DNA of 64,000 nucleotides from Cyclobacteriaceae bacterium (GTDB lineage Bacteria; Bacteroidota; Bacteroidia; Cytophagales; Cyclobacteriaceae), in contig OZ257123.1 of NCBI GenBank assembly GCA_965278925.1, forward strand, positions 2,880,753-2,944,752, given 5' to 3'. Shown here in pieces: positions 1 to 17,411 of the stretch (positions are counted from its first letter, which is position 1; each line of letters starts with the position of its first letter). The notes below the pieces were generated by a model. That model was not told the origin of the DNA and made no database searches. It saw nothing but the letters and a program-made list of their open reading frames with translations. Made by a program: the position numbers and the translations under genes.

Positions 1-2028
1 ATTCAGGGGGATCAAAAGACTGCTTTACTATTACCCAATTCAATAGTTATTACAAAAGAGCAAGCCTACAACTATTTTGGAATGGAAGATCCTATTAACA
101 AGCTCTTGGAATTTAAAGATTCAAAAGAGCAATATAAAGTCACCGGAGTTATTGAAAAGGTACCCGTCAATTCACATTTTCATTTTGATCTCTTTGCATC
201 GATGGAGGGATTGGCTCACTCAAAAGAGGATAAATGGTTAGAGTCAAATTATTACACGTATGTAGTGCTCGAAAAAGGAACGGACCACAAAGAGTTTGAA
301 TCAAAGTTGCCTGCCATAATTAAGAAATACATGGGGCCTCAAGTAGCGCAGTTGGGAATGACCTTCGAAAAATTCCGGGAAAGTGGTAACGAAATTGGTC
401 TTTTTATTCAGCCTCTTACAGAGATTCATCTATTTTCTGATTTTGCAGGGGCAAGCGAATTAGAAGCGGGCGGAGATATAAATACAGTTTACATTTTTGG
501 AGCTGTCGCATTATTTATGCTCCTGATTGCGTGTATCAATTTTATGAACCTTTCAACAGCCGGGGCAACCAAACGTAGCAAAGAGGTGGGCGTTAAAAAA
601 GTCCTGGGTTCTCAAAGAAATCAATTAGTACATCAGTTTCTAATTGAGTCATTCATCGCTACTGCCGTAGCAATGATATTGGGGGTGCTTATTGTGACGG
701 TTTGCTTATCTGCATTCAATCAACTTTCAGGTAAAGAATTAGAATCTGCTTTTCTCTTAAAACCCCAGGTAATTGCTTCCCTTATGGCATTACTGATTTC
801 CATCGGTTTGCTGGCAGGTGGCTATCCAGCCTTCTTTCTTTCTTCGATTAAACCTATTGCTGCTCTTAAAAATAAATTCTCAAATAACGGCAAGAGCAAA
901 GGCATTCGGAGTGCACTGGTTGTTTTTCAATTTGTAATTTCAGTAACACTCATTTTGGCAATTATAGTAGTGAGCCAGCAAATGAGTTACATACAGGATA
1001 AAAATATCGGCTACAACCGTGATCAGCGAATTGTGTTTAGAGAATCCCATTTATTAGGCTCCAGTGAAAACGCTTTTAAGAATCAGCTCTTAACAGATCC
1101 GCGAATTGAAAGTGTAACGAGATCTGCATTTATCCCTGCCGGCCCGACTGACGACAATATGACAAGTGTTTGGGTAGGTGAAAACAAAGAAGACTTCAGA
1201 AGAACGGTTATCTATGGAATTGACCCAGGTTACATCCCTACCATGGGGATGCAAATAATAACAGGGAGAAATTTTTTAGAAGGGCCTGAAAGCGAAAATG
1301 ATAAAGTTATTGTCAATGAAGCATTTATTAAAGCTTTTTCTTTGCAGGGAAATCCATTGGGTCAAGCTATTAATCAAAGAACCGATAACATTGGTGGCTA
1401 CAGTTCTTTAACCATTGTTGGGGTTATCAAAGATTTCCATTTCAGGTCATTGCATGAACCGATAGCGCCTTTAATGATGCTAAACAATTCTTATGGTGGA
1501 TTGATCATAAAAACAAAAACGGCTGAAATGGCTGACTTACTTGCCAGTATAAATGAAAAGTGGCAAGCGTTTCATGTCGAAGAACCTTTTACCTATGCCT
1601 TGCTTGACGAACTCTACAACGAAACCTATTTAGCTGAAAAGAACATGGGTAGTGTCTTAAAGATATTTGGGTTGTTAACCATTTTTGTAGCGTGCCTTGG
1701 TTTATTCGGACTCATCACTTTTACAGCAGAGCAACGCGTGAAGGAAATTGGTATTCGAAAAGTATTAGGAGCTGAAGTCTTTCAAATTATGTCAATGCTC
1801 TCAAAAGACCTGCTTTTACTCATTGTCATTTCATTCGTCATCGCCTTTCCATTAGGATATTATTTGATGGACAAGTGGCTTCAGGATTTTGCCTACAAAA
1901 TTGAAATACAATGGTGGACATTTATGGCTGCCGGAATAAGTACGTTGTTGATTGCACTTTTTACCGTGAGTTTCAAAACTGTAAAATCTGCTTTGGCTAA
2001 CCCGGTAGAGAGCCTGCGATCGGAATAA
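1..2028 (+). CDS. MacB/FtsX-type ABC transporter permease, 5'-truncated by window edge
   Basis: Frame 1 is open from base 1 (IQGDQKTALLLPNSIVITKEQ...) into the listed ORF. It has the ACINFMNLSTA...RSKEVGVKKVLG and ACLGLFGL...EQRVKEIGIRKVLGA motifs of duplicated FtsX domains and the NPVESLRSE end. Confidence 0.93.
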   Translation: MQGDQKTALLLPNSIVITKEQAYNYFGMEDPINKLLEFKDSKEQYKVTGVIEKVPVNSHFHFDLFASMEGLAHSKEDKWLESNYYTYVVLEKGTDHKEFESKLPAIIKKYMGPQVAQLGMTFEKFRESGNEIGLFIQPLTEIHLFSDFAGASELEAGGDINTVYIFGAVALFMLLIACINFMNLSTAGATKRSKEVGVKKVLGSQRNQLVHQFLIESFIATAVAMILGVLIVTVCLSAFNQLSGKELESAFLLKPQVIASLMALLISIGLLAGGYPAFFLSSIKPIAALKNKFSNNGKSKGIRSALVVFQFVISVTLILAIIVVSQQMSYIQDKNIGYNRDQRIVFRESHLLGSSENAFKNQLLTDPRIESVTRSAFIPAGPTDDNMTSVWVGENKEDFRRTVIYGIDPGYIPTMGMQIITGRNFLEGPESENDKVIVNEAFIKAFSLQGNPLGQAINQRTDNIGGYSSLTIVGVIKDFHFRSLHEPIAPLMMLNNSYGGLIIKTKTAEMADLLASINEKWQAFHVEEPFTYALLDELYNETYLAEKNMGSVLKIFGLLTIFVACLGLFGLITFTAEQRVKEIGIRKVLGAEVFQIMSMLSKDLLLLIVISFVIAFPLGYYLMDKWLQDFAYKIEIQWWTFMAAGISTLLIALFTVSFKTVKSALANPVESLRSE

Positions 2029-2032
2029 AATC

Positions 2033-4696
2033 ATGAAACAAAATCCACCAAAGCTTCCTCTCCGCTTCTTTCGCTGGTTCTGCCATCCGAAGTTGCGAGA
2101 TAATATTGAAGGTGATTTGATGGAGTTGTATGAAGAAAGAAAAGTTAGAAGTGGGAAGCTAAAAGCAGACTTAAAATTTATCAAAGATGTGTTGCTGCTT
2201 TTCAGACCGGGAATTATTAAACCCACAAATGGAACAGAAACACTAAACACCTACGGTATGTTAAAAAATTATTTTAAAATCAGTTGGCGCAATCTGGTGA
2301 AGCACAAAATGTATTCGGCTATCAAAATCGGAGGCTTTGCCGTTGGGGTAGCCGCTTGCTTGCTGATCGCATTATTCATTAAAGATGAACTCTCGTACGA
2401 TAAACATTATGCCAATCATAAACAGTTGTACAGAGTCTTGGGTGTGATTACCGAAAATGGTGATCCTAGAAAAGGCGTGGCCTTTCCAGCGCCAATGGCA
2501 TCAGCCATAAAGGAAGCGTTTCCTGAAATATTGAATGCCGGTCGATACAACAATAGTGAACTGTTTGGAGCGGGTGCCAGTGAAGTGCGTGCTGCAGACA
2601 ACGATGACAATGCCTACGATGAAGGTTTTGTCTATTTCGATCAATCCTTGATTGACATCTTTCAATTGAAGTTTGTGTATGGCCATCCCGCAAAAGCGCT
2701 TACTCAACCCGGTTCTATTGTTATCACAAAAAGAAAAGCCGATAAATATTTTCCCGGTGAAAATCCGGTTGGTAAAGCATTAGTGGTAAACAATAAGGCC
2801 GATAAACCCTACACCATCGGTGGCGTGATTGAAGATTTTAAAACAACTTCACACCTGCAGTTTGATTTTCTAATTGGAATGGAAGGCCTTGAATTTTGGA
2901 ATGGTGAACAGCAATCATGGGGCGCTAGTAACTATGCCACCTACTTTCAAGTGGAAGAAGGTGTGGATGTTAAATCGCTGGAATCCAAAATCTCGAAAGA
3001 GGTGATAGAAAAATACTTTATGCCAGGGATGATAGCAGGCGGGCAATCTGAAGAAAATGTGAAGAAATTTTTCAGCGAAAAACAAGCTCATTTAGAACTG
3101 CAGCCGATAGACAAGATTCACCTGTACTCAGAAGGTGTTGCTGATAACTTGGTTTATGGCGACATCCGGTTTGTCTGGTTGTTTGGAGGAGTAGCTCTGT
3201 TCATTTTAATGATTGCAGCTATCAACTTTATTAATCTTTCCACAGCCAAATCAGCCAATCGTGCAAAAGAGGTAGGTCTGAGGAAAGTGGTTGGTTCCCT
3301 TCGTGGCAACATCATCAATCAGTTTCTCAGCGAATCGGTCATGTTCAGTACAATCTCATTTGTGCTGGGGTTGGCCATTGCTTCGATTATACTGCAATAC
3401 TTCAACTCGATTTCAGGAAAATCAATTTCAATGCCATTGATGGAATGGTGGTTTGTTCCATCTCTTTTGGGATTATCGGTGGTGGTCGGTGTTATCGCTG
3501 GGATCTATCCGTCATTTTACTTGTCATCCTTCAAACCCATTCAGGTGTTGAAAGGTGCATTAACACAAGGCTCAAAAAGCTCACCACTCAGAAGTTCGTT
3601 AGTAATATTTCAATTCACCATCAGTATCATTCTGCTAATCGGCACAATGGTTATTCAAAAGCAAATGAATTTTATCCTGAACAAAAAAATCGGGTTCGAT
3701 AAAGAGCAGGTATTGTTGTTACAAGGAACAGACACGTTGGGGCCTCTGGTTGTTTCATTCGCCAATGAGTTGCGCGAGGTGTCTCAGGTAGTTGAGGTTT
3801 CTACTGGCGATTACTTACCGGTGCGCGGTTCGAAAAGAAATGGAAATGGTTTTTGGAACGAAGGCCGTAAAAGTATTGATCCAGCGGTATCGAGTCAATT
3901 CTGGCGCGTTGATCCATATTATGTAAACACACTCGGTCTTAAAATTGTAGAAGGTCGCGACTTCAACCGCGATCTCGCTTCAGACTCCAGCGCCATCATC
4001 ATCAATCAAAAAATGGCAAAAGAACTTGGCGGTAACATGCTGGGCAAAGGCATCACTAACTATGCCGGTCTATGGACTGTTATTGGTATTGTAGAAGATT
4101 TCCATTATGAATCGCTTCGCGAAGACATTCGTCCTCTTGGATTAGCCTTAGGCACAGAAGCTTCAGTTCTTGCTGTTAAACTGAAAGCCGGTGATATGAG
4201 TGAAAACATTCAAGCAATCACTACTGTGTGGGATAAGTTTGCTCCCCACCAACCAATCCGGTATTCATTCTTAGATGAACTTTATGCGGCCATGTATAGC
4301 GATGTGCAGCGCACAGGAAAAATATTTACAAGTTTCTCCATACTGGCTATAATAGTAGCTTGTTTGGGGTTGTTTGCCTTATCGGCTTTTATGGTAGAAC
4401 AGCGTAGCAAAGAAATCAGTGTTCGATTGGTTTTAGGAGCTTCCGTAAACAGCGTGTTCCAATTACTTACGTGGGATTTTCTAAGACTGGTTTTGACTTC
4501 TATTGTAATCGCAGCCCCCATAAGTTGGTACATGATGTCACGCTGGCTCGAAGATTATGCCTACAGAACAACAATAGGCTGGGATGTTTTTGTGGTATCA
4601 GGGATAATTTCTGTTTTGATTGCTCTTTTCACTATAAGCTTTCAATCTATTAAGGCTGCAGTAATGAATCCGGTGAAAGGGTTGAGAAGTGAGTGA
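2033..4696 (+). CDS. ABC permease (MacB_PCD/FtsX x2) with type-A N-terminal permease-prefix module
   Basis: 887 aa. N-terminal PPKLPLRFFRWFCHPKL..IEGDLMELYEER prefix, internal MLKNYFKI at 2258, INFINLSTAKS..RAKEVGLRK and C-terminal NPVKGLRSE. Confidence 0.93.
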   Translation: MKQNPPKLPLRFFRWFCHPKLRDNIEGDLMELYEERKVRSGKLKADLKFIKDVLLLFRPGIIKPTNGTETLNTYGMLKNYFKISWRNLVKHKMYSAIKIGGFAVGVAACLLIALFIKDELSYDKHYANHKQLYRVLGVITENGDPRKGVAFPAPMASAIKEAFPEILNAGRYNNSELFGAGASEVRAADNDDNAYDEGFVYFDQSLIDIFQLKFVYGHPAKALTQPGSIVITKRKADKYFPGENPVGKALVVNNKADKPYTIGGVIEDFKTTSHLQFDFLIGMEGLEFWNGEQQSWGASNYATYFQVEEGVDVKSLESKISKEVIEKYFMPGMIAGGQSEENVKKFFSEKQAHLELQPIDKIHLYSEGVADNLVYGDIRFVWLFGGVALFILMIAAINFINLSTAKSANRAKEVGLRKVVGSLRGNIINQFLSESVMFSTISFVLGLAIASIILQYFNSISGKSISMPLMEWWFVPSLLGLSVVVGVIAGIYPSFYLSSFKPIQVLKGALTQGSKSSPLRSSLVIFQFTISIILLIGTMVIQKQMNFILNKKIGFDKEQVLLLQGTDTLGPLVVSFANELREVSQVVEVSTGDYLPVRGSKRNGNGFWNEGRKSIDPAVSSQFWRVDPYYVNTLGLKIVEGRDFNRDLASDSSAIIINQKMAKELGGNMLGKGITNYAGLWTVIGIVEDFHYESLREDIRPLGLALGTEASVLAVKLKAGDMSENIQAITTVWDKFAPHQPIRYSFLDELYAAMYSDVQRTGKIFTSFSILAIIVACLGLFALSAFMVEQRSKEISVRLVLGASVNSVFQLLTWDFLRLVLTSIVIAAPISWYMMSRWLEDYAYRTTIGWDVFVVSGIISVLIALFTISFQSIKAAVMNPVKGLRSE

Positions 4697-4710
4697 AAAT
4701 ATAAGTAGTT

Positions 4711-4767
4711 AGACATAAGTATCAAGACATTAAGTCTGTCTAATATTTTATGTCTTGATACTTGTCT
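4711..4767. repeat. Intergenic inverted repeat / stem-loop
   Basis: AAGTATCAAGACAT (4717-4730) is the exact reverse complement of ATGTCTTGATACTT (4750-4763); AGAC/GTCT (4711-4714, 4764-4767) extends it. Confidence 0.85.
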
Positions 4768-4784
4768 CCAAGGTAAAATTGAAA

Positions 4785-7409
4785 ATGAAAAATCAGGCAC
4801 CCCAACTCCCCCTCCGCTTCTTCCGATGGTTCTGCCATCCGAAGTTGAGAAATAGTATTGAAGGGGATTTGATGGAATTGTATGAGGAAAGAAAGGTTAA
4901 AAATGGAAAGTTAAAAGCAGATTTAAGATTTATACTCGATGTAGTCTTGCTCTTCAGACCTAGTATAATAAAACCAGCAGAAGGATATCAAAATTTAAAC
5001 ACATACGGTATGTTCAAAAGTTATTTTAAAATTAGTCTTCGTCATCTGATCAAAAACAAAACGTTCGCATTTATCAATGTCTTTAGCTTAGCCGTTGGGC
5101 TGGCTGCTTGCGTGGTCATTTATTTGTTTGTATCGGACGAACGAAGTTTCGATACCTTCCATTCCAAAAATAAAAATATCTACAGGCTCGATGAAGTGCA
5201 AAAGTTTACCGGAACAAACGAGCAAAAGGTAGCGCTCTCCATGCCTGGAATGGCACCTGCCATGAAGCAGGATTTCCCTGAAGTTCAATCGTACGTGCGA
5301 TTGTGGTTGCGTGGCAAGGAGCTGATCACCAAAGAAGACACCAAACAATTGATCGAAAATGTAATGGTGGTGGACAGTACTTTTTTTGATGTGTTTGATT
5401 TTCCTTTGGTTCAGGGCGACATCAGTACATGTTTAAATCGACCACTAACTATTTTACTTACAGAGTCCACCGCATTGAAATTTTTCAAGACGCCAAGTGA
5501 AGCTCTCAACAATACAGTTTCATGGGATGGACGAGACTATCAGGTTACCGGAATTCTAAAAAACGTTCCTGAAAATTCACACATTCAATTTGATGCCTTG
5601 CTCTCCATGGTTACTTACACGAGTGGCGAAAATAATGTCAATGATTCATGGGGTGGCAATTGGATGACTACTTATTTACTATTGGAGCCCACTGTGGATA
5701 TCAAGTCTATGGAGGAAAAAATTCCGGCATTTCTCTCTCGCTACATGGATGACCCAGAAATCACCACAACCTATAAGTTATTTCTACAACCCCTCAATCA
5801 AGTACACCTGGCCTCTACAGATATCGAACATGACTACATTAACTATCGAAAATTTAATGGATCGTACCTGACTATATTTTATGTGATTGCCGCTTTTATT
5901 CTACTGATAGCAGCTGTCAATTTTATGAATCTGACTACGGCTCGTGCATCTCATCGCTGGAAAGAGATAGGAGTACGAAAAACAATCGGAGCAAAGAAAG
6001 TTCAATTATTTGGTCAGTTTATTTTTGAGTCGGTGATGTTAGCGGGCATTGCTTTGGTGGTCGCCTTATTGATCGATGCTCTCTTTGTTCCGATGATCAA
6101 TGACTTAATCGGGCGAAAACTTTCTCTCTTTCAGTTGTTTCAAAACGAGTGGCAATTGGCAGCGGTGCTGGTCGGTACGCTTTCATTGGGCATACTAACG
6201 GGTATCTATCCCTCATTTTATATGACTTCGTTTAATTTATCGCGTGTGCTAAAGGGTGGCAACAAGGGCGAAGGTAAGTCAGTACTACGAAGTACGTTAG
6301 TCGTGGTTCAATTTGGATTGGCCATCGCTATGATGGTAAGTACACTGATTGTTGTGCAGCAACTGTCGTTTATGAAAGAATCTGACATCGGCTTTGATAA
6401 AGACCAAATGCTACTGGTGAATATGAATTCTGAAGCCAATGAAAAATTTGAAACCATTAAAAAGGAATTACAACAGCGGTCCGTAATACGCGGGGTAACC
6501 GCCAGTGGCCAACGCCTAGGAAATAATTTTCATCAAGGTGGCTTCAAAGTAAAAGCTGATACAGGAGTGATGAGCATTACGCCCTCCAATATAAATGTGG
6601 ATTACGACTACCTGACAGTGTATGGTATAGAGATGAAGGAAGGCCGGGGATTCTCGAAAGATAATCCCACAAAGAATGGTTCTGCATTTATCATCAACGA
6701 ATCGCTTGCTAAAGAACTGAGGTTAAAAGAAACCATTGGTACAAAGGCTGGTCACGACTGGGATCATAATGACTCCCTTGGAACCATCATTGGCGTGGTA
6801 AAGGATTTTAATTTCAACTCTCTTCATTACAAAGTAAATACCTTGGCGCTATCACTTCATCCTGAATGGGGCTACAGCGAACTATCGGTAAAAATAGAGA
6901 AGGGCCACACCGAAGAAGGAATAGCTGCGGTAAAAAAAGTATGGGACGAATTAGTTCCCTCTTACCCCTTTGATTATACATTTCTGGATGCGCACTTTGA
7001 AGAAGTGTATCGTTCCGATAATCAAATGAGTTCCGTGGTGACAATTATGGCCGGGCTTTCCATTCTGATTTCCTGCATAGGATTATTTGGTCTGGCCGCT
7101 ATCACGATTGAGAAAAAGACAAAAGAAATTGGTGTGAGAAAAGCATTGGGGGCTACCGAAGGTCAGATTACTATACTGCTCTCACGCAAATTTGCTATGT
7201 TAATTATTATCGCATTTGTAATTGTAAGTCCTATAACCTACTACGCGCTTCATCACTGGTTAGAAAGTTTTGCCTACCGCATAAACATTAATTTACTCTT
7301 GTTTGTTTCAGGAGGTGTTCTTGCCTTGGTGATAGGATTACTCACCATTAGTTATCATACAATAACATCGGCACGTGCTAATCCTGTTAAGGCATTGAGA
7401 TACGAATAG
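4785..7409 (+). CDS. ABC permease (MacB/FtsX) with type-A prefix module
   Basis: ATG at 4785 chosen over TTG 4755 because it aligns with the paralog starts. Prefix PQLPLRFFRWFCHPKL, internal MFKSYFKI at 5010, FtsX motifs. Confidence 0.92.
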   Translation: MKNQAPQLPLRFFRWFCHPKLRNSIEGDLMELYEERKVKNGKLKADLRFILDVVLLFRPSIIKPAEGYQNLNTYGMFKSYFKISLRHLIKNKTFAFINVFSLAVGLAACVVIYLFVSDERSFDTFHSKNKNIYRLDEVQKFTGTNEQKVALSMPGMAPAMKQDFPEVQSYVRLWLRGKELITKEDTKQLIENVMVVDSTFFDVFDFPLVQGDISTCLNRPLTILLTESTALKFFKTPSEALNNTVSWDGRDYQVTGILKNVPENSHIQFDALLSMVTYTSGENNVNDSWGGNWMTTYLLLEPTVDIKSMEEKIPAFLSRYMDDPEITTTYKLFLQPLNQVHLASTDIEHDYINYRKFNGSYLTIFYVIAAFILLIAAVNFMNLTTARASHRWKEIGVRKTIGAKKVQLFGQFIFESVMLAGIALVVALLIDALFVPMINDLIGRKLSLFQLFQNEWQLAAVLVGTLSLGILTGIYPSFYMTSFNLSRVLKGGNKGEGKSVLRSTLVVVQFGLAIAMMVSTLIVVQQLSFMKESDIGFDKDQMLLVNMNSEANEKFETIKKELQQRSVIRGVTASGQRLGNNFHQGGFKVKADTGVMSITPSNINVDYDYLTVYGIEMKEGRGFSKDNPTKNGSAFIINESLAKELRLKETIGTKAGHDWDHNDSLGTIIGVVKDFNFNSLHYKVNTLALSLHPEWGYSELSVKIEKGHTEEGIAAVKKVWDELVPSYPFDYTFLDAHFEEVYRSDNQMSSVVTIMAGLSILISCIGLFGLAAITIEKKTKEIGVRKALGATEGQITILLSRKFAMLIIIAFVIVSPITYYALHHWLESFAYRININLLLFVSGGVLALVIGLLTISYHTITSARANPVKALRYE

Positions 7410-7540
7410 TTAATAAGTGACCACGTTAACAAATCTCAGCAATTATAATGCCTGATCGTTTCCGATAAGTAATCGTCCATAATCGGACTAGCTCGTGAGC
7501 GTAGATTGCATTTACAGTTCGTTTTCGAATCCTAAGTGAT

Positions 7541-7586
7541 TTGGCACAATTGTTATTCCTACATTTGGAGAATAATAATTTGCCAA
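7541..7586 (+). promoter_or_regulatory. Imperfect inverted repeat (candidate PadR operator) enclosing a TAnnTTTG -7 box
   Basis: TTGGCACAATTGTTATTC (7541-7558) pairs with GAATAATAATTTGCCAA (7570-7586) with one mismatch and one bulge. TACATTTG at 7560-7567 matches the Bacteroidota sigmaA -7 consensus. Confidence 0.55.
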
Positions 7587-7927
7587 TGAAAAATTATCAA
7601 CTGGGTGAGTTTGAAGAGATCGTGCTGCTTACGGTCGGCATCTTAAACAATGAAGCGTACAGTGTAGCCATTAAAGATGAAATTGAATCGCGGTTAGCGC
7701 GCACCGTAAGTATGGGGGCACTGCACACGGCATTAATTCGACTGGAAGATAAAGGTTATTTAAAATCCTATTCGGGAGAAAGCACCGAAGATCGTGCCGG
7801 CCGACCAAGACGTTATTTTGAAATAACAGCCCTCGGAAAAAAAGCCATGCATTACGCAAAAGAAACTCGGGAACAGTTGTGGAAAGCGATACCGAAGACA
7901 GTTTTTGAAATCAACTTGATAAAATAA
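7586..7927 (+). CDS. PadR-family transcriptional regulator (paralog 1)
   Basis: MKNYQLGEFEEIVLL...AY...GALHTALIRLEDKGYL..S...RAGRPRRYFEITALG is a PadR winged HTH. ATG 7586 preferred to TTG 7541. Confidence 0.9.
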   Translation: MKNYQLGEFEEIVLLTVGILNNEAYSVAIKDEIESRLARTVSMGALHTALIRLEDKGYLKSYSGESTEDRAGRPRRYFEITALGKKAMHYAKETREQLWKAIPKTVFEINLIK

Positions 7928-7930
7928 GTG

Positions 7931-7998
7931 GGCAGTAAGCAGGTGGCAATAGGCAGTTAATACATTCCTGCTGACTGCATCCTGCCGTCTGCCAACTG
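7931..7998. repeat. Heptamer-periodic inverted repeat (GGCAGTN x4 / CTGCCNN x4)
   Basis: GGCAGTA AGCAGGT GGCAATA GGCAGTT, 9-nt spacer, then CTGCTGA CTGCATC CTGCCGT CTGCCAA CTG. Confidence 0.75.
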
Positions 7999-8007
7999 AT
8001 TAACAAT

Positions 8008-10653
8008 ATGGACCATACTCCGCCCAAACTCTTTCTTCGCTTCTTCCGCTGGTACTGCCACCCGAAGTTGATCGATTATATCGAAGGCGACTTGTTAGAG
8101 GTTTATGAAAGGCGATTGGAAAAATCTGGCAAACGAAACGCAGACCTACATTTTATAAAAGACGTGCTGCTGCTCTTCCGGGCAGGAATTATCAAACCAA
8201 CAGAAGGATATAGAAATTTAAACAACTACGGTATGTTCAAAAGTTATTTTAAAATCGGATGGCGTAGTCTTCTCAAGAACAAAGGCTACTCCTACATCAA
8301 CGTTGTTGGCCTGGCCATGGGAATGGCCGTTACACTTTTAATCGGAATGTGGGTGGTTGATGAACTATCCTTTAATCGTTATCATAAAAATTATGATCGA
8401 ATTGCACAGGTGTTTCAACATCAAACCGTTTTTAATGAGGTGAAAACAAATACCGCTGTGCCCATGCCGCTGGCCATAGAATTAAAAAATAGTTACCCAC
8501 ACGATTTCAAACATGTGGTACAAATGTGGTGGGAACGCAGTCACGTTCTCACCATCGAAGAAAAAAAGATTCCGCGAAATGGAGTATTTATGGGAAAGGA
8601 AGGACTTGAAATGTTTTCATTTGAAATGGTGCAAGGTTCATGGAAAAGTCTGGATGACCCTTCTTCGATTGTTCTCTCAGAGTCTACAGCTCACATTCTT
8701 TTTGGTGATCAAGATCCTGTTAATCAAATGCTAACGATTGACAATTCCCTTGATGTGAAGGTGACCGGAGTTTTCATGGAACCTCCTTCCAATTCAAGGT
8801 TTCACGCGCTTCAATTCATCTCCAGTTGGGATTTATGGGTATCGACCAACCCGTGGATGAAAGATGATGAAAACAACTGGAACAGTGATGATATTAATTT
8901 TACAGATGTAATTACGTATGTGGAGATCGAGCCAACTACCAACTTTGAGACGGTCTCAAAAAAAATTGAGAAGGTAAAGTTTAACAAACTAACGCCCGTG
9001 CAAGCGGCACAGGAAAACCCGAAAGTATTTCTTCAGCCTATGAGCCGCTGGCATTTGTACTCGCAATGGAAAGATGCGCAAGAAAGCGGTGGGCGAATTC
9101 AATTCGTATGGCTGTTTGGGATGATCGGATTTTTTGTTTTGGTGCTTGCCTGCATCAACTTCATGAACCTGAGCACTGCCCAGTCGGAGATGCGCGCCAA
9201 AGAAGTGGGCATTCGCAAATCGATTGGCTCTGCGCGCTCTCAATTGATCAGTCAGTTTTACATTGAGACATCTTTAATTGTGTTATGCGCTTTTGTTTTT
9301 GCAATGGGTCTGGCGGGCATGGCCCTACCGTGGTTCAATCAATTGTCTGAAAAAGAAATGACTATGCCATGGACAAACCCGATCTTTCTTTTGATTGCGC
9401 TGGGTTTCATTTTTTTTACCAGTCTCCTTGCCGGTAGTTATCCCGCATTGTTTCTTTCTTCGTTTCAACCAGTAAATGTTTTGAAAGGTACGTTCCGGGT
9501 GGGTCGATTTGTAAACGTTCCGCGCAAAGTATTGGTCGTGATGCAATTTTCTGTATCTGTGGCTCTGATTATTGGCACCATCATCGTGTGGCAACAGATT
9601 CAATTCGCTAAAGACAGGCCGATAGGCTATACCCGTGAAGGGTTGATTATGGTACGGAAAACCGCGCCCGATTTTTGGAGGATAATTCGACCGTTAAAAA
9701 ATAAACTAAAAGAGTCGGATGCTATTGTTGAATTGGCCGAATCGTCAAGCCCGGCCACCGAAACGTGGTTTACATTTAACAACTTCAACTGGCAAGGCAA
9801 AAACCCTGACGAAAAAATCGGATTTACTTGTGCAGCGATAACTGTTGACTATGGCGCTACGATGGGTTGGAATTTTATTCAAGGTCGTGATCTCTCACGC
9901 GAGTTCTCTACGGATTCCTCTGCCGTTATTCTCAATGAAACTGCTGCGCGATTAATCGGGTGGCAGAATCCAATCAACGAAGAGATTACCTGGAATGGAA
10001 GAACGTTCAGGGTGATTGGAGTAATACAAGATATGATTGTGGATTCGCCTTACGAACCCGTTAAGCCAAGTGTGTATTTCATGCAAAACAATCTTCTGTT
10101 GAATACGCTTGGCAATGTATGGATTACCATGCGATTGAATCCCAATCTAAGTCCGCATGAAGCAATTGCACGCGTGGAGAATGTTTTTAAATCAGTACTG
10201 CCAGCCGTTCCCTTTGAATTCAAATTCATTGATCAGGAATACGAAAGTAAATTTGCAGCCGAAGAACGTATCGGTAAACTCGCAACCTTGTTTGCTGTAC
10301 TTGCTATTTTAATTTCGTGTCTTGGGCTGTTTGGCCTGTCATCGTTTGTGGCACATCAACGAACAAAAGAAATCGGCATCCGCAAAGTGATGGGCGCATC
10401 TGTGTTTAATCTCTGGAAAATGTTATCAAAAGATTTTGTGATACTGGTTTCTATTTCCATCCTCATCTCTATTCCCTTCGCCTATTATGTAGTAGAAAAA
10501 TGGTTAATGGCATATACATACCGGATTGAAATAACCTGGTGGATTTTTGCCGTCTCGGCATTAGGTGCTGTAACGATAACGCTTGCCACCGTTAGCTTCC
10601 AGGCTATAAAAGCCGCACTGATGAATCCGGTGAAAAGCCTTCGCTCGGAATAG
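8008..10653 (+). CDS. ABC permease (MacB/FtsX) with type-A prefix module
   Basis: 881 aa. PPKLFLRFFRWYCHPKLIDYIEGDLLEVYE prefix, internal MFKSYFKIGWR at 8233, FtsX motifs. Confidence 0.93.
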   Translation: MDHTPPKLFLRFFRWYCHPKLIDYIEGDLLEVYERRLEKSGKRNADLHFIKDVLLLFRAGIIKPTEGYRNLNNYGMFKSYFKIGWRSLLKNKGYSYINVVGLAMGMAVTLLIGMWVVDELSFNRYHKNYDRIAQVFQHQTVFNEVKTNTAVPMPLAIELKNSYPHDFKHVVQMWWERSHVLTIEEKKIPRNGVFMGKEGLEMFSFEMVQGSWKSLDDPSSIVLSESTAHILFGDQDPVNQMLTIDNSLDVKVTGVFMEPPSNSRFHALQFISSWDLWVSTNPWMKDDENNWNSDDINFTDVITYVEIEPTTNFETVSKKIEKVKFNKLTPVQAAQENPKVFLQPMSRWHLYSQWKDAQESGGRIQFVWLFGMIGFFVLVLACINFMNLSTAQSEMRAKEVGIRKSIGSARSQLISQFYIETSLIVLCAFVFAMGLAGMALPWFNQLSEKEMTMPWTNPIFLLIALGFIFFTSLLAGSYPALFLSSFQPVNVLKGTFRVGRFVNVPRKVLVVMQFSVSVALIIGTIIVWQQIQFAKDRPIGYTREGLIMVRKTAPDFWRIIRPLKNKLKESDAIVELAESSSPATETWFTFNNFNWQGKNPDEKIGFTCAAITVDYGATMGWNFIQGRDLSREFSTDSSAVILNETAARLIGWQNPINEEITWNGRTFRVIGVIQDMIVDSPYEPVKPSVYFMQNNLLLNTLGNVWITMRLNPNLSPHEAIARVENVFKSVLPAVPFEFKFIDQEYESKFAAEERIGKLATLFAVLAILISCLGLFGLSSFVAHQRTKEIGIRKVMGASVFNLWKMLSKDFVILVSISILISIPFAYYVVEKWLMAYTYRIEITWWIFAVSALGAVTITLATVSFQAIKAALMNPVKSLRSE

Positions 10654-10658
10654 TTGAG

Positions 10659-10697
10659 CAGATCACAGTCAAACTGTCGACAGTCGGCTGTGGTCTG
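10659..10697. repeat. Stem-loop with nested 12-bp palindrome
   Basis: CAGATCACAGTC (10659-10670) pairs with GGCTGTGGTCTG (10686-10697) using two G-U pairs. The loop contains the perfect palindrome ACTGTCGACAGT (10673-10684). Confidence 0.7.
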
Positions 10698-10744
10698 AGC
10701 ACAATAACAAAGCCACCTATTTTCGGGGCTAAAATTTTGCAGGG

Positions 10745-10796
10745 TTTACTTAACAAAAGTGAAACTAATGTATTATATTCACGTTTGTTAAGTAAA
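10745..10796 (+). promoter_or_regulatory. 19-bp inverted repeat, candidate PadR operator
   Basis: TTTACTTAACAAAAGTGAA (10745-10763) versus TTCACGTTTGTTAAGTAAA (10778-10796): 18/19 complementary, 14-nt spacer, ending 7 nt before the padR2 ATG. Confidence 0.65.
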
Positions 10797-10803
10797 TATC
10801 ATT

Positions 10804-11130
10804 ATGACACAACAATCTCTTGGTGAATTTGAGGAACTCGTTTTGCTTATGGTGGCTGCCCTGCATGACGAAGCCTACGGAGTAGTTATTCTGGAAGGTC
10901 TCGAGCAAAAACTAAAAAAGAAAGTAAACATCAGTGCGGTACATGTTGCCTTAAAACGCATTGAAGACAAAGGCTTTGTAAAATCCCGCTTTGGCGGAAT
11001 TACGGAAGACCGCGGAGGCAGACGCAAAAAGTTTTATGTCATTACTGCTTTGGGAAAAAGAATGCTCGATGCTCAGTATAATTTGCGAAACAGCATCTAT
11101 AAAGAGATTCCAAAAATATCATTCGGTTAA
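10804..11130 (+). CDS. PadR-family transcriptional regulator (paralog 2)
   Basis: MTQQSLGEFEELVLL...AYG...SAVHVALKRIEDKGFV.S...RGGRRKKFYVITALG; clear paralog of 7586-7927. Confidence 0.9.
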   Translation: MTQQSLGEFEELVLLMVAALHDEAYGVVILEGLEQKLKKKVNISAVHVALKRIEDKGFVKSRFGGITEDRGGRRKKFYVITALGKRMLDAQYNLRNSIYKEIPKISFG

Positions 11131-11156
11131 TGACCAAACTTGACATATGAGAAAAG

Positions 11157-11195
11157 GTAATCAGTAAGTGGAAATCGGTCGGGTTTACTGATTAC
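11157..11195. repeat. Intergenic inverted repeat with 7-nt periodicity
   Basis: GTAATCAGTAA (11157-11167) / TTACTGATTAC (11185-11195), perfect 11 bp; the right arm continues TTACTGA TTACTAT TCACTAC. Confidence 0.7.
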
Positions 11196-11216
11196 TATTC
11201 ACTACGCCAGTTAAAA

Positions 11217-11864
11217 ATGAAAAATAATCCTCCAAAACGTCCTCTTCAATTCCTCCGCTGGTTTTGCCGTGAAGATTATCTCGAAGAGATTGAGGGAGAC
11301 TTGACAGAGGTTTTTATAAAGCAAGCAGAAATCTCTCTCCGCAAAGCGAAGTGGAAATTTGTTTGGAGTGTGATCATGTATTTCAGGCCGCAGTTTATGA
11401 TTGTCGATATACAAAACTCAACTATTATGAAATCAATACTGAGCATCAAAGAAAGTCCTTATGTACTGTTTTTGTTTACAACCATCGCATTATTGCTTAC
11501 ACTCGCATTTCGCCCCATCGCTGAAATTGATATCCAAGACATAACTATGTTCAGCTTTCCACTAAGCAGCATAGTTTGGGTATTCCCTTTCCTGCTTCTA
11601 TCCTCCTGGCTGATTTATTTAGTTACCAATAAATTTCTCTACTCGATAGCTATCACCTGGATACACGTTCTCACAACAGTTATCACTACGCTCCTCATTG
11701 TCATTGTTCTATATATAGGCATAAATCCATCACAATTTACAAGCGACCAGCACGAGTTAATTGGCATCATCATTCAAATTTTATCCTTGCTATTTGTTTT
11801 TGGTCAACTCGCTTATGTAGTAAATATTTTAATTGGAATTTTTGGCAGGGCTAAAGCTCATTGA
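11217..11864 (+). CDS. Chimeric protein: type-B permease prefix fused to a small membrane protein (about 4 TM)
   Basis: Residues 1-61 are nearly identical to the N-terminus of 11893-14481. The remainder is hydrophobic, is not FtsX-like, and has its own ATG at 11427. Confidence 0.75.
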   Translation: MKNNPPKRPLQFLRWFCREDYLEEIEGDLTEVFIKQAEISLRKAKWKFVWSVIMYFRPQFMIVDIQNSTIMKSILSIKESPYVLFLFTTIALLLTLAFRPIAEIDIQDITMFSFPLSSIVWVFPFLLLSSWLIYLVTNKFLYSIAITWIHVLTTVITTLLIVIVLYIGINPSQFTSDQHELIGIIIQILSLLFVFGQLAYVVNILIGIFGRAKAH

Positions 11865-11892
11865 TTATAGAAGGAGCCTTTGAATAAAGAAA

Positions 11893-14481
11893 ATGCAACC
11901 ACCCAAGCGCCCTCTTCAATTTCTTCGCTGGTTTTGCCGCGAAGATTATCTCGAAGAGATTGAGGGAGACCTGACGGAGGTTTTTATAAAACAATCTGAA
12001 ATTTCTCCGCGCAAAGCAAAATGGAAATTTGGTTGGAGTGTAATCAAATATTTCAGGCCAGAGTTTATGAAGTCGTTTAAGTATCATCCTAATGGATACG
12101 GTATGTATAAAAGTTATTTTAAAATAGGATGGCGAAATCTGCTGAAAGAAAAAGGATATTCATTTATTAACATCGGAGGGTTTTCCCTTGGTATGGCCAT
12201 TGCCATATTGATTGGGTTGTGGGTATACGATGAGTTATCTTTTAACAAACATCAGGAAAATTATAATGAAGTTGCTGTAGTACTGCAAAACAATACCGTT
12301 GATGGCAAGATTGAAACATGGTCAAGCCAGTCGTATCAACTGGGATCCGAGCTTCGAAACAATTACGGAAATCATTTCAAACATGTGGTGATGTTGTCTT
12401 TCCCTGCAAGCTCCATTCTTACACAACAGGAAAAGACCTTTAGTGTAGTTGGAAGTTTTATGGAAGCGGATGGTCCGGAATTGTTGTCTCTGCAAATGAT
12501 GCATGGTTCACGCACTGCGCTAAAAGACCCAAGTTCTCTTTTATTATCAGCCACTGTGGCTAATACGTTTTTTGGTGACGAGAATCCCGTTGGCCAGGTA
12601 GTGAAACTCGACAATGGCATTGACTTGAAAGTAACAGGTGTATACCAGGACATTCCAGACAACTCTGACTTTAAAGGTGAGTTTGGTTTTATCGCACACC
12701 TTAACATACTGGTAAATCGCGGTGGTCGATCGTTCGGGTGGAGTAACAACTGGTTGGGGGTGTACGTTCAGGTGGCCGATCACGCAGACATGCAGCAGGC
12801 TTCTCTCGCTATCAAAGATGCCAAGATTAAAAATGTGCCTGAAGGTGATAATCGATTCAAGCCTGAACTTTTTCTACATCCTATGTCGAAGTGGCATTTA
12901 TATTCTGAGTTTAAAGATGGCGTGAACACAGGTGGCCGCATTGATTTCGTATGGCTATTTGGGGCGATTGGAATTTTTGTTCTTCTGTTAGCCTGCATCA
13001 ACTTTATGAATCTGAGTACTGCGCGTTCTCAGAAACGAGCCAAGGAAGTTGGTGTTCGTAAAGTAATCGGTTCAGCACGGGGTCAACTCATGCGTCAGTT
13101 TTTCAGCGAATCGTTGTTGGTCGTTATGCTCGCATTTATCTTCTCCATTTTATTAGTTATACTTTCTCTGCCCTGGTTTAACGAAATCGCCAACAAACAA
13201 ATTAACATCAACTTGGCAAGTCTGCCTCTTTTCTTAGCCGCGGTTTCATTTATCTTTCTGATCGCACTTCTTGCGGGTAGTTATCCTGCCTTTTATCTAT
13301 CTGGGTTTACTCCAGCCAAAGTATTGAAAGGAACATTTAAGCTGGGGGGTTCTGCTTCGCTTCCGCGAAAAGTATTGGTCACGGTACAATTTACTGTTTC
13401 TATTATATTAATTGTTGGAACTATTGTAGTATACCAACAGATTCAGTTTGCAAAAAATCGCCCGTTGGGATATGACTTAAATGGCCTGATCAACATCCCC
13501 ATCCGAACACCAGAGGTAAAGAGAAGTTACAATGCGTTGCGAAATGATTTGTTGAGTAGCGGTGTGATCTCAGACGTATCAAGTTCCGAAACAACTGTTA
13601 CAAATTTATGGTGGTCCGATTGGGGATTTAAGTGGAGAGGCAAAGACCCCAACTTTCAGGATAATATTTTCCGGGGCGCTATTGATTATGACTTTGGCAA
13701 AACCGTTGGCTGGAAAATAAAAGAAGGCCGCGATTTCTCGCGGGATTTTCCGTCAGACTCCACTGCAATGATACTCAATGAAGCTGCGGTAAAGTACATG
13801 GGCTTTGAAGATCCGATTGGTGAAACCATTCGCACCTACGGAAAAGAATATACGGTGATAGGTGTGGTGGAGGATATGGTAACCCAATCGCTTTATCGGT
13901 CGAACAAACAAACTGTTTTTGTGCTTAATCCTTTTGATCAGGTCAATTTTATTGGTGTTAGAATAAGTCCGCAGGCAAGTCCTGATGAGGCCCTGACTAA
14001 ATTGAGTCAGGTTTTTCTAAAACACAACCCAAGCACACCGTTTGAATATAAATTTGCTGACGATGAGTTTGCAGAGAAATTTGCTTTCGAAAAACGTGTA
14101 GGTAGTTTGGTGACCATCTTTGCTGTGCTGGCCATTTTTATCAGTTGCCTCGGACTTTTTGGGTTATCCTCTTTTGTCGCTGAACAACGTACCAAAGAGA
14201 TTGGCATCCGCAAGGTAATGGGCGCTTCTACCTCCAGTCTCTGGCGTATGTTATCCAAAGATTTTTTACTGCTTGTGATCATCGCTTGTTTTATTGCCAT
14301 GCCCGTTGCTAATTATTTAATGCGTGGCTGGCTGAGCTCATACGATTATCGCACAGAAATTTCGTGGTGGGTATTCCTGATCACGGGTGGTAGCGTGTTA
14401 CTCGTTACTCTGTTGACGGTAAGTTATCAAACTGTAAAGGCTGCCATGATGAACCCGGTTAATAGTTTGAAAGCGGAATGA
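11893..14481 (+). CDS. ABC permease (MacB/FtsX) with type-B prefix module
   Basis: 862 aa. PPKRPLQFLRWFCREDYLEEIEGDL prefix, internal MYKSYFKIGWR at 12103, FtsX motifs. Confidence 0.93.
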   Translation: MQPPKRPLQFLRWFCREDYLEEIEGDLTEVFIKQSEISPRKAKWKFGWSVIKYFRPEFMKSFKYHPNGYGMYKSYFKIGWRNLLKEKGYSFINIGGFSLGMAIAILIGLWVYDELSFNKHQENYNEVAVVLQNNTVDGKIETWSSQSYQLGSELRNNYGNHFKHVVMLSFPASSILTQQEKTFSVVGSFMEADGPELLSLQMMHGSRTALKDPSSLLLSATVANTFFGDENPVGQVVKLDNGIDLKVTGVYQDIPDNSDFKGEFGFIAHLNILVNRGGRSFGWSNNWLGVYVQVADHADMQQASLAIKDAKIKNVPEGDNRFKPELFLHPMSKWHLYSEFKDGVNTGGRIDFVWLFGAIGIFVLLLACINFMNLSTARSQKRAKEVGVRKVIGSARGQLMRQFFSESLLVVMLAFIFSILLVILSLPWFNEIANKQININLASLPLFLAAVSFIFLIALLAGSYPAFYLSGFTPAKVLKGTFKLGGSASLPRKVLVTVQFTVSIILIVGTIVVYQQIQFAKNRPLGYDLNGLINIPIRTPEVKRSYNALRNDLLSSGVISDVSSSETTVTNLWWSDWGFKWRGKDPNFQDNIFRGAIDYDFGKTVGWKIKEGRDFSRDFPSDSTAMILNEAAVKYMGFEDPIGETIRTYGKEYTVIGVVEDMVTQSLYRSNKQTVFVLNPFDQVNFIGVRISPQASPDEALTKLSQVFLKHNPSTPFEYKFADDEFAEKFAFEKRVGSLVTIFAVLAIFISCLGLFGLSSFVAEQRTKEIGIRKVMGASTSSLWRMLSKDFLLLVIIACFIAMPVANYLMRGWLSSYDYRTEISWWVFLITGGSVLLVTLLTVSYQTVKAAMMNPVNSLKAE

Positions 14482-14525
14482 AAAATAGACACAAGATATA
14501 AGGCTACTTAAGTCTTAACCAAGGA

Positions 14526-17159
14526 ATGATCATTAAGCCACCTCAACGACCCCTTCAATTCCTTCGCTGGTTTTGCCGCGAAGATTATCTCGATGAGATT
14601 GAGGGAGATCTGTTGGAGATTTATAAAAAGCAAGTTGAAAGCTCTCCGCGCACAGCGAAATGGAAATTTGCATTAAGTGTAATCAAATATTTAAGACCAG
14701 AGTTTATGAAGTCGTTTAGTAATCATCAACCAAATGCATATAGTATGTATAAAAGTTATTTTAAGATAGGCTGGCGAAATCTGTTGAAGAACAAAGGATT
14801 CTCTTTCATTAATATCGGAGGGCTGTCGGTAGGTGTCGCGGTGGCCATACTTATTGGTTTATGGATTTATGATGAATTAAGCTTTGATACGTATCATCAA
14901 AACTACGATCGCATTGCTCAGGTATTGACGCAAGAAACGGACGAAAAAGGGAGTGTGGGTATCAATACTTCTTTACCCTACCCATTGGCATTGGAATTAA
15001 AGTCGAACTATGCCGACAATTTCAAGCATGTTGTTATCGGCACATTTAGCATACGCGAATACATTTTATCTACCGATGATAAAAATCTGACACGAACAGG
15101 ACAATTTTTAGAACCGCCCGCTCCTGAAATGTTTTCTTTAAAAATGATCCACGGTTCGCACGCTGCACTGAACGATAGAAACTCCATTCTGCTATCGGCC
15201 TCTACAGCCACTGCATTTTTTGGAGATGCTGATCCTATCAATCAACTGATGAAAATAAATAGTCGGTTGGAAGTTAAAGTAACAGGAGTATATGAAGACT
15301 TACCTCAGAACACAGCTTTGTATGAATTAAAATTTATTGCTCCGTTTGATCTTTGGGTAAGCGATAATCCCTGGGTAAGCGAGCGAGCCACTACCGACTG
15401 GAATAATCATTTTCTTAAAGTTTATACGGAGATTCTTTCCACACATAATTTTGCAACGGTATCGGCTCAAATTATGGATGCCGAGTTAAAAAACTTAAAT
15501 CATCTGCCCGACCAGGCAGCAGAAAAACCAGAAGTGTTTTTGCATCCCATGAGCGACTGGCACCTGTATAGTTTTAAAAACAGCGAAGTGAATACGGAGC
15601 CAAGCAGAATGGTGATGCTTATTGGATTGATAGGAGCATTAGTGCTCGTGCTGGCTTGCATCAACTTTGTAAACTTAAGCACTGCTCGCAGTGAAACCCG
15701 AGCCAAAGAAGTGGGCATTCGAAAGGCGATAGGTTCTATGCGTAGGCAATTGATTGGTCAGTTTTTAAGTGAATCGTTTCTGGTTGTTTTCTTTTCGCTT
15801 GCCTTCTCCATTTTGTTGGCTGCACTCTTGTTGCCGTGGTTCAACGACCTTGCTGCAAAGCAAATGATTCTACCCGTTGGCAACTGGAGGTTTTGGTTAC
15901 TAATATTTTCACTTATGCTAATGACTGGTTTGCTGGCAGGCGGCTACCCGGCTGTTTATCTTTCTTCATTTAACCCGGTGAAAGCTTTGAAAGGTGTTTT
16001 GAGTGCCGGGCAAGGCGTGATCTCACATCGCAAGGTTTTAGTGGTTACACAATTCACCATTTCAGTTTCGTTAATCATCTCCACCATTATTATCTATTAC
16101 CAGATACAATTCGCAAAAGATCGCCCGGTAGGTTATAACCGAGAAGGATTGATTATGCTGGAGATGAAAAGCAATGACTTTAAGGGTAAGTACGATATGC
16201 TTCGAACCTTGTTAAAGAACACAGGCGCTGTTGCAGAAATTTCCGAGTCGATGGGAAAAATGACACAGGTTTGGTCAAGTAACGATGGCTGGGAATGGAA
16301 AGACCGAAACCCGGCTCTTACCAAAAGTTTCGGAACGCTTACGGTAACTCCCGAGCATGGAAATACTATTGGGTGGCAACTGCTACAAGGAAGAGATTTT
16401 TCTGAAAGAATGGCGAGCGATTCGTTAGCGATTGTTATTAATGAATCTGCTATGAATTATATGGAAATGAAAAATCCCGTAGGAGAAACGGTGAGCTGGA
16501 AGTTTCGCGACAAGACATTTCACTATGAGATAATAGGAGTGGTAAAAGATATGGTGATGGAATCGCCTTATCAACCTATAAAGCCAACTGCGTTTTTTAT
16601 CAAAGCCCCGAACGGTACTCCAAACTGGATAAACATTAGGCTTAATCCTTCCTTGAGTACAAGTGAAGCACTTTCAAAAATTGAAAGTGCACTTAAAAAA
16701 ATAGCTCCCAATATTCCATTTGATTATAAATTCGTGGATGACGAATATAACGCTAAATTTTTGGCAGAAGTACGCATTGGGAAGTTGGCCGGCTTCTTCT
16801 CTTTGTTGGCAATTTTTATTTCCTGCTTAGGATTGTTTGGAATGGCCAGCTTTATGGCCGAGCAACGCACCAAAGAAATTGGAATTAGAAAAGTGTTAGG
16901 TGCCAGTGTAACGAATCTTTGGGTCTTGTTATCAAAAGACTTTGTGGTATTGGTGATCCTTTCGTGTTGCATTGCTATACCAATTGCTTACTATTCTATG
17001 AACAGTTGGCTGTTGAAGTATCAATATCGTACCCAAATATCGATTTGGATATTTCTGTTTACTAGCATGGGCGCGTTGGCGATCACACTTTTAACAGTAA
17101 GTTTTCAGGCTATCAAAGCTGCCATGACGAACCCGGGTAATAGTTTAAAATCAGAATGA
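14526..17159 (+). CDS. ABC permease (MacB/FtsX) with type-B prefix module
   Basis: 877 aa. PPQRPLQFLRWFCREDYLDEIEGDL prefix, internal MYKSYFKIGWR at 14745. Confidence 0.93.
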   Translation: MIIKPPQRPLQFLRWFCREDYLDEIEGDLLEIYKKQVESSPRTAKWKFALSVIKYLRPEFMKSFSNHQPNAYSMYKSYFKIGWRNLLKNKGFSFINIGGLSVGVAVAILIGLWIYDELSFDTYHQNYDRIAQVLTQETDEKGSVGINTSLPYPLALELKSNYADNFKHVVIGTFSIREYILSTDDKNLTRTGQFLEPPAPEMFSLKMIHGSHAALNDRNSILLSASTATAFFGDADPINQLMKINSRLEVKVTGVYEDLPQNTALYELKFIAPFDLWVSDNPWVSERATTDWNNHFLKVYTEILSTHNFATVSAQIMDAELKNLNHLPDQAAEKPEVFLHPMSDWHLYSFKNSEVNTEPSRMVMLIGLIGALVLVLACINFVNLSTARSETRAKEVGIRKAIGSMRRQLIGQFLSESFLVVFFSLAFSILLAALLLPWFNDLAAKQMILPVGNWRFWLLIFSLMLMTGLLAGGYPAVYLSSFNPVKALKGVLSAGQGVISHRKVLVVTQFTISVSLIISTIIIYYQIQFAKDRPVGYNREGLIMLEMKSNDFKGKYDMLRTLLKNTGAVAEISESMGKMTQVWSSNDGWEWKDRNPALTKSFGTLTVTPEHGNTIGWQLLQGRDFSERMASDSLAIVINESAMNYMEMKNPVGETVSWKFRDKTFHYEIIGVVKDMVMESPYQPIKPTAFFIKAPNGTPNWINIRLNPSLSTSEALSKIESALKKIAPNIPFDYKFVDDEYNAKFLAEVRIGKLAGFFSLLAIFISCLGLFGMASFMAEQRTKEIGIRKVLGASVTNLWVLLSKDFVVLVILSCCIAIPIAYYSMNSWLLKYQYRTQISIWIFLFTSMGALAITLLTVSFQAIKAAMTNPGNSLKSE

Positions 17160-17262
17160 AACCAATCCTCCCAAACGCCCCCTCCAATTCCTCCGCTGGT
17201 TTTGCCGCGAAGATTATCTCGATGAGATTGAAGGCGATCTGTTGGAGATTTATATAAAATAA
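17156..17262 (+). pseudogene. Orphan, frameshifted and truncated type-B prefix remnant
   Basis: From 17161 the frame reads TNPPKRPLQFLRWFCREDYLDEIEGDLLEIYIK*. The ATG at 17156 (ATGA overlap with the upstream stop) is out of frame by one base, and a stop follows at 17260-17262. Confidence 0.85.
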
Positions 17263-17371
17263 AATGAAAAATGGTATTTTTCGATATCGGGAAATAAAGT
17301 CCGACTTTGAACGGTGTTTTACTAATCACTAAGAAAACATGTGAACGCAGGCTAAATTAGAAGATCGGTTA

Positions 17372-17386
17372 TGGCCGGATTGTTGA
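17372..17386 (+). promoter_or_regulatory. Candidate sigma54-type -24/-12 promoter
   Basis: TGGCCGGATTGTTGA has GG-N10-GA spacing with TT at -14/-13 (canonical TGGCACG-N4-TTGC); 25 nt before the ATG at 17412. Confidence 0.35.
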
Positions 17387-17411
17387 AATAGCCATACCTA
17401 TAAAACCAGCT

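Follow-up and report, generated by a model that had tools for sequence, protein, structure and literature searches.

The window analysed here is a 64,000-nucleotide (nt) stretch of the single-contig, 4.42 Mb genome of a Cyclobacteriaceae bacterium (G000:C1:2880753–2944752), and its left part (1–19646) is a forward-strand array of permease genes with two PadR-family regulator genes (7586–7927 and 10804–11130). Two MacB_PCD+FtsX halves are present in each of 1–2028, 2033–4696, 4785–7409, 8008–10653, 11893–14481, 14526–17159 and 17412–19646. The locus comprises three tandem PadR-led operons (padR0, padR1 and padR2), with one to four of these orphan duplicated permeases apiece. Six genes of the window (2033, 4785, 8008, 11217, 11893 and 14526, designated by their first position) begin with a short domain of 70–75 residues, here termed the prefix, that occurs as types A (subtypes A0 and A1) and B. 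The prefix follows the regulator of its operon rather than the membrane body to which it is fused: a padR gene and its prefix type evolve as one heritable unit, and recombination at a conserved prefix/body junction moves permease bodies from one operon to another. The features of the array are as follows.

1–2028, + strand: 3′ part of permease P2, the second permease of the padR0 operon; the gene begins, with its A0 prefix, shortly before the window (genome 2880126)
2033–4696, + strand: permease P3 of the padR0 operon; A0 prefix 2033–2257, then a duplicated MacB_PCD+FtsX body
4785–7409, + strand: permease P4 of the padR0 operon; A0 prefix 4785–5009, body 34% identical to that of P3
7548–7580, no strand: inverted repeat, candidate PadR1 operator; 11-nt arms and 11-nt spacer, just 5′ of the padR1 start
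7586–7927, + strand: padR1, a single-domain PadR-family regulator of 113 amino acids (aa)
8008–10653, + strand: gene 8008, the only permease of the padR1 operon; A1 prefix 8008–8232
10746–10795, no strand: inverted repeat, candidate PadR2 operator; 15-nt arms and 20-nt spacer, 5′ of padR2
10804–11130, + strand: padR2, a PadR-family regulator of 108 aa, 47% identical to PadR1
11217–11864, + strand: gene 11217 of the padR2 operon (215 aa); type B prefix and small hydrophobic body
11893–14481, + strand: gene 11893, a padR2-operon permease; type B prefix 11893–12102
14526–17159, + strand: gene 14526, a padR2-operon permease; type B prefix 14526–14744
17156–17262, + strand: prefix remnant 17156, a broken type B prefix of the padR2 operon
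17412–19646, + strand: last gene of the array, a divergent permease without prefix, similar to the acidobacterial duplicated orphan permeases (ADOP)

The leftmost operon is led by padR0 (L178:10383–10721), located 4.4 kb upstream of the window start and encoding a protein 71% identical to PadR1. It consists of a 243-aa open reading frame (ORF) resembling GIFT/ABC_transp_aux proteins and the permeases P1–P4, of which genes 2033 and 4785 are P3 and P4; the original prediction, made from the window alone, had placed these two genes around padR1, an assignment that does not hold. All three regulators are members of Pfam PF03551 (gathering cut-off 27 bits), with scores of 46.6 (padR0), 45.6 (padR1) and 33.0 bits (padR2), and domain annotation reveals no ATPase gene within the cluster or adjoining it. 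The 243-aa ORF lies between padR0 and P1 (L178:10753–11484; genome 2876753–2877484) and has an apparent signal peptide (an N-terminal hydrophobic segment) and a weak GIFT/ABC_transp_aux match; the gap between the padR0-type PadR gene and the first permease is similar in some relatives (e.g. G023, ~850 bp). Relatives of the locus carry Cytophagales names (Cyclobacteriaceae, Ohtaekwangia, Chryseolinea and Ekhidna).

Judged by sequence, prefix types A and B both fall, as subtypes, within a known domain, NF038404 (NCBIfam perm_prefix_2), because all six window prefixes exceed its cut-off of 35 bits, with scores of 48–56 bits (E 1e-13 to 5e-15). The match spans residues 3–64 and is N-terminal to MacB_PCD+FtsX, with the exception of gene 11217, which has a small non-FtsX body. 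All 16 prefixes of the genome match the model (best E 1e-23), and the region has an invariant G-D and conserved helices. Curated domain matches this far above cut-off rule out chance or mis-called ORFs as the source of the pattern, and the prefix coordinates and motifs of the original prediction stand. So do the 75 residues that it counted ahead of an internal Met in type A: this Met is residue 76 in 2033, 4785 (ATG start) and 8008, and the corresponding positions are residue 71 in 11893 and 74 in 14526.

Prefixes are 65–77% identical within type A, 65–83% within type B and 36–43% between the two. The proposal of two prefix types for two PadRs is too simple, as this locus alone has three operons and three subtypes, and many others occur in the rest of the genome and in the genus. 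Type A comprises subtype A0, found with padR0, and subtype A1, found with padR1. Gene 8008, previously assigned to type A, is A-like but carries the separate subtype A1 (RWYC...DYIEGDLLEVYERR), which is found again with padR1 orthologues in five other genomes (G021, G023, G011, G012 and G006). The four permeases P1–P4 all have type A prefixes that are 73–90% identical, on bodies that are 33–38% identical. The described placement of type B on 11217, 11893, 14526 and 17156, all after padR2, is correct, except that 17156 is a remnant: its DNA is ~90% identical to the 14526 prefix, the frame slips by one base past the ATG, and the reading frame closes after 33 codons. Truncated or frame-shifted prefix remnants lie at or near the end of three PadR operons of the genome (window 17156–17262; genome 2548862–2549038 and 3335472–3335693), and a prefix-less permease comes after the remnant in two of the three; short prefix remnants are likewise present in G006, G012, G014 and G022.

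Prefixes and PadR genes of this subfamily occur together. The genome has 10 such PadR genes, each directly 5′ of prefix-bearing genes (10/10 operons), and in a sample of 90 loci around PadR matches in ~20 related genomes, yielding 106 PadR operons and 143 full-length prefix-permeases, prefix genes adjoin PadR at 101/106 loci. A PadR gene is directly upstream of the prefix gene in 30/30 loci sampled across the phylum. The perm_prefix_2 domain itself is patchily distributed there, being present in 23/301 sampled genomes, mostly from the family to which the window belongs and from a single family in another class (17/49).

Prefixes resemble one another where their PadRs do. Between members of different operons, the correlation of prefix identity is r=0.75 with PadR identity and r=0.33 with body identity; partial correlations come to 0.73 for prefix and PadR given body, 0.20 for prefix and body given PadR, and 0.03 for body and PadR given prefix. 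With one permease taken from each of 97 operons, prefix and PadR correlate at r=0.71 (partial 0.66 given body; Mantel p<=5e-4), compared with a partial r of 0.24 for prefix and body given PadR, and the nearest prefix neighbour has a median rank of second by PadR and eleventh by body. Pairs with bodies 50–65% identical and PadRs below 55% have prefixes that are merely 26–29% identical (n=111), and pairs with bodies below 30% and PadRs above 85% have prefixes 58% identical (n=71); the median identities of same-operon pairs are 66% for prefix and 33% for body. An independent set of 76 Cytophagales loci, retrieved with an A/B prefix alignment and composed mostly of type A loci, shows recurring motif pairs: the PadR motif AYGVSIKK with the prefix motif GDLxELY in 54/61 cases, AYSVxIK with GDLxEVY in 17/19, and AYGVxILE with the type B prefix.

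Prefix and body have different histories. In a body tree of 32 permeases, 14 changes of PadR-type label are required, not far from the mean of 16.5 for shuffled labels, whereas in the prefix tree 5 suffice, which is the minimum. The body tree contains six sister pairs (support 98–100) with different prefix types, such as 14526 (type B) with an A0-prefixed permease of G023 (support 100) and 11893 (type B) with an A1-prefixed permease of G012 (support 100), and near-orthologous bodies (67–86% identical) bear different prefix types in different species. Congruence fails both ways in approximately unbiased (AU) tests: with prefix data, the sister pairs of the body tree are rejected (p 5e-5 to 6e-4), and with body data so are an all-B clade (1e-98), 11893+14526 (1e-37), P1–P4 (2e-5) and 2033+4785 (7e-4). 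The p-values are somewhat optimistic because the groups were chosen after the identity matrices were known. Operon-internal duplication followed by fast body divergence is ruled out, as the body data reject clades of operon mates. Tracking of the PadR by the prefix, shuffling of prefixes relative to bodies and discordant prefix and body trees had all been anticipated by the original prediction, and each is borne out.

In sliding windows, identity switches within ~10 codons of the prefix/body junction, which has the conserved sequence ..YGMYKSYFKIGWRNL.., and nucleotide identity between body orthologues of G023 and G021 rises from 59–67% in the prefix to 80–92% just past it. Genes 2033 and 4785 are the converse case and match their earlier description as near-identical prefixes on unlike bodies, with 77–89% DNA identity over the first ~50 codons and ~45–49% in the body.

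Permease bodies of the array are 29–35% identical in general. That of 8008 is closest to those of 11893 and 14526 (48–51%, compared with 29–34% to 2033 and 4785) in spite of its A-like prefix, as had been noted before, and belongs to a clade with these two and the permease at genome 2869721. The PadR/prefix-permease pair at genome 2869384–2872330 has a body of this clade and a prefix of yet another type; just upstream of this pair are genes for a KdpD sensor-domain protein and a HAMP-PAS histidine kinase (L178:434–3267; genome 2866434–2869267). Gene 11217 has several apparent membrane-spanning stretches without FtsX or any Pfam domain. Its fusion is retained and not transient, because the same fusion is kept in a padR2-type operon of G023 (225 aa; 240 bits over the body); no prefix-less copy of its body was found in G000.

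The permeases resemble ADOP (TIGR03434), large paralogous families of duplicated MacB_PCD+FtsX proteins without an ATPase gene and with a PadR partner (TIGR03433). The window permeases score 270–304 bits against an ADOP cut-off of 622 and are thus not members, with an architecture that is alike, and the window PadRs (39.3 and 35.0 bits) do not reach the 101.8-bit cut-off of TIGR03433 (padR_acidobact). The genome encodes 43 ADOP-like permeases, of which 14 are prefixed, all of them in the 10 operons with a PadR of this subfamily at their head; 25 of the 29 prefix-less ones are far from any PadR of the subfamily. Two prefix-less ADOP-like permeases without a nearby PadR lie on the minus strand of the window (~39805–42216 and 51023–53413).

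Both selection and gene conversion act on the prefix. Over an ungapped 32-codon core, same-type copies from different genomes have a proportion of synonymous differences (pS) of 0.64–0.80, near saturation, and of nonsynonymous differences (pN) of 0.11–0.14 (pN/pS 0.14–0.18); the type-specific amino acid sequence is under purifying selection, because pN is low despite near-saturated pS. Copies within an operon are also partly homogenised by gene conversion, since same-operon pS is lower (0.46–0.62) and prefix paralogues group by genome in the prefix tree.

The inverted repeats at 7548–7580 and 10746–10795 are each conserved 5′ of the orthologous padR gene in 3–4 other genomes, the padR2 repeat in three, and are candidate operators of their own PadR. 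The repeats are specific to the PadR type: those of the padR0 and padR1 types are alike, while that of padR2 has no relation to the padR1 repeat. No padR0-type repeat was evident in the 110 nt taken from G000. A scan for sigma-70 promoters and terminators is uninformative in this phylum. Mutual information between PadR and prefix columns is noisy and inflated at conserved columns, and only the top pair is considered here. It joins PadR1 residue 31, presumably in the first helix of the helix-turn-helix from general PadR architecture, to prefix residue 35 (gene 8008 numbering), in predicted helix 2. Charged residues occupy both positions in 107 operons: the pair is basic/acidic in 54 of them, acidic/basic in 50, acid/acid in 3 and basic/basic in none, so that 104/107 are charge-complementary, and the basic/acidic state is present in at least four PadR clades.

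A precedent for a membrane partner of this kind is the dyad of HAAS and a PadR-like winged helix-turn-helix (wHTH) protein (Ravi et al. 2024, mSystems, PMC11237479), a computational proposal in which HAAS, a short helical cytoplasmic N-terminal domain of multi-transmembrane proteins, is always next to a stand-alone PadR-type wHTH and relays signals from the membrane by binding the regulator or letting it go; fusions to FtsX/MacB-PCD permeases are among those listed (PMC11237479). We favour a similar role here, with a probability of about 0.6: the prefix would be a docking surface for the PadR of its own operon, much as the original prediction had proposed with its cognate docking or anti-repressor tag. 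Indirect support for docking comes from the presence of prefixes with PadR operons, the tracking of PadR identity by prefix identity, the conservation of each type's protein sequence over saturated synonymous divergence, the charge-complementary 31/35 pair (few independent events) and the conserved repeats of each PadR type. The prefix lies N-terminal to the first membrane helix, with a K/R-rich stretch after it, and by analogy with MacB topology it probably faces the cytoplasm. The variable periplasmic and membrane body would sense a signal, which would alter binding of the prefix to PadR and thereby relieve, or impose, repression of the operon; several sensor or transporter bodies would report to a single regulator, without crosstalk between neighbouring operons. 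More tentatively, and with somewhat less than even odds, PadR/prefix pairs may be mutually insulated signalling channels with a readable specificity code, of which PadR 31/prefix 35 would be one determinant, and the junction may be a natural cassette site for plugging new periplasmic sensor or transporter bodies into an existing channel.

Several observations weigh against docking. The gene for PadR and the first prefix of an operon are adjacent DNA, and linkage alone would give co-variation; gene conversion could make operon mates alike without any contact with PadR, and it clearly operates, as the lowered same-operon pS shows, together with the operon mates of G021_op011, which have unrelated bodies and nucleotide identities of 91–97% in the prefix and 39–49% beyond it. 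AlphaFold models (two runs, with 16 and 39 sequences) have helices at 4–13, 16–37 and 39–53 with predicted local distance difference test (pLDDT) scores of only 61–63, and a Foldseek search of these low-confidence models against the PDB gave no match at E<3. A sequence search of the PDB with the prefix profile gave no match, and so no solved structure by sequence; a Pfam search of five prefixes found nothing at E<=10, HAAS-type models included, and the prefix has no match to the NCBIfam model perm_prefix_1. The 31/35 pair has undergone 3 well-supported (at most 7) independent changes, for which a sign test is not significant, and in the phylum sample it shows mostly uncharged clades and one acid-acid exception; this charge pair is a lead and not a result.

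The leading rival explanation is linkage with neutral concerted evolution, in which the prefix has a generic role (membrane insertion or stability) and its match to the PadR comes from adjacency and conversion. Prefixes have been transferred recently at the DNA level between unrelated bodies, as in G021_op011 and in 11893 and 14526 (81–88% nucleotide identity between prefixes), and the low same-operon pS and the grouping of prefix paralogues by genome fit this explanation. We nevertheless regard it as unlikely, given that operons merely 0.1–3 kb apart keep distinct types and that many genomes repeat the same match of type and PadR, that bodies moved between A and B operons bear a wholly different prefix (32–35% identical), which similarity-seeded conversion cannot yield, and that type-specific residues persist through near-saturated synonymous change. 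A generic role is unneeded, given that the 29 paralogues without a prefix insert and persist. Less probable again is that the prefix docks another cytoplasmic partner, either the missing ABC ATPase or the partner permease of the operon. In MacB, a fused nucleotide-binding domain is on the N-terminal side of the first membrane helix, the position that the prefix occupies here, and the cluster and its flanks lack an ATPase gene; a prefix common to operon mates would also suit assembly of hetero-oligomers. But an ATPase encoded elsewhere would be shared and gives no reason for operon-specific types, and the prefix-less paralogues would need one too; moreover, prefix presence correlates with PadR operons and not with permease function, and the prefix is also present on the small non-FtsX membrane protein 11217.

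What is conserved could also be nucleic acid and not protein, for instance an operator or promoter inside the gene, or an RNA structure, at the 5′ start of each permease gene, as a ~55-nt stretch that is nearly invariant among the four type B copies of the window might suggest. This has very little to recommend it: a DNA- or RNA-level element is largely ruled out by the same-type pN/pS of 0.14–0.18 at near-saturated pS between genomes, the candidate operators are conserved palindromes 5′ of the padR genes and outside the prefixes, and the region is a recognised protein domain family with its invariant G-D and conserved helices.

Several described systems are comparable. The prefix's N-terminal position, PadR neighbour and three predicted helices (low pLDDT) are like those of the HAAS dyad, for which the criterion is three consecutive helices with the third kinked at a conserved GxP motif; a conserved R-P(G/S/E) is present at the end of predicted helix 3 of the prefix. 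The prefix has no detectable sequence relation or fold match to the HAAS superfamily (DUF1700/HAAS_TM, DUF1129 and DUF1048); PF08006 (DUF1700/HAAS_TM) was not found in the genome, and assignment to HAAS, DUF1700 or perm_prefix_1 by sequence is rejected for lack of a match. The type-specific co-variation with PadR and the swapping of bodies seen here are not reported in PMC11237479. In Listeria, LltR-lmo0600 (a DUF1700 protein; Hauf et al. 2019, PMC6624303) likewise has an autoregulated PadR repressor gene directly followed by a gene for a multi-spanning protein with an N-terminal helical domain, but with another partner domain and membrane body and a single partner per operon, and PMC6624303 shows neither binding nor modular exchange. 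The permeases share with ADOP the duplicated MacB_PCD+FtsX architecture without an ATPase gene, the many paralogues and the adjoining PadR, and differ in their scores and in a prefix of type 2 instead of type 1. Two-component and sigma/anti-sigma systems also have many paralogous regulator/partner pairs per genome with pair-specific co-varying residues; here, the partners are a PadR and a helical tag and not a kinase and a receiver, and it is the sensor bodies that are exchanged between pairs, with the small adaptor staying with the regulator.

Known beforehand were the domain family, the PadR/permease neighbourhood and the dyad idea. To the extent that the literature can be searched, the co-variation with PadR, the swapping of bodies at a fixed junction and the candidate contact are new; the NF038404 annotation merely names the domain, and subtypes, PadR pairing and mosaic structure are not part of it. 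A literature search on the permease prefix domain and on PadR with FtsX in Bacteroidetes found nothing specific.

Membrane-partnered PadR regulators are very common, and the HAAS-PadR dyad is a computational proposal for how partner and regulator communicate. The locus is a natural experiment on this question, as regulator types keep the same short tag while large sensor and transport bodies change. Because regulator types recur with the same tag while bodies are exchanged, the sequence comparisons point to the tag as the regulator-facing part of the permease. Within 20 kb the locus provides three cognate and non-cognate combinations (PadR0/A0, PadR1/A1 and PadR2/B) with which the predicted signalling pair is testable, and one candidate contact pair. 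It is also a clear case of domain-level mosaicism that recombination at a conserved junction maintains, within a large Bacteroidota permease family about which little is understood. If the docking reading is true, the mosaicism would amount to a recombination-driven diversification of one-component-like membrane signalling, and the HAAS-type mechanism could be put on an experimental footing.

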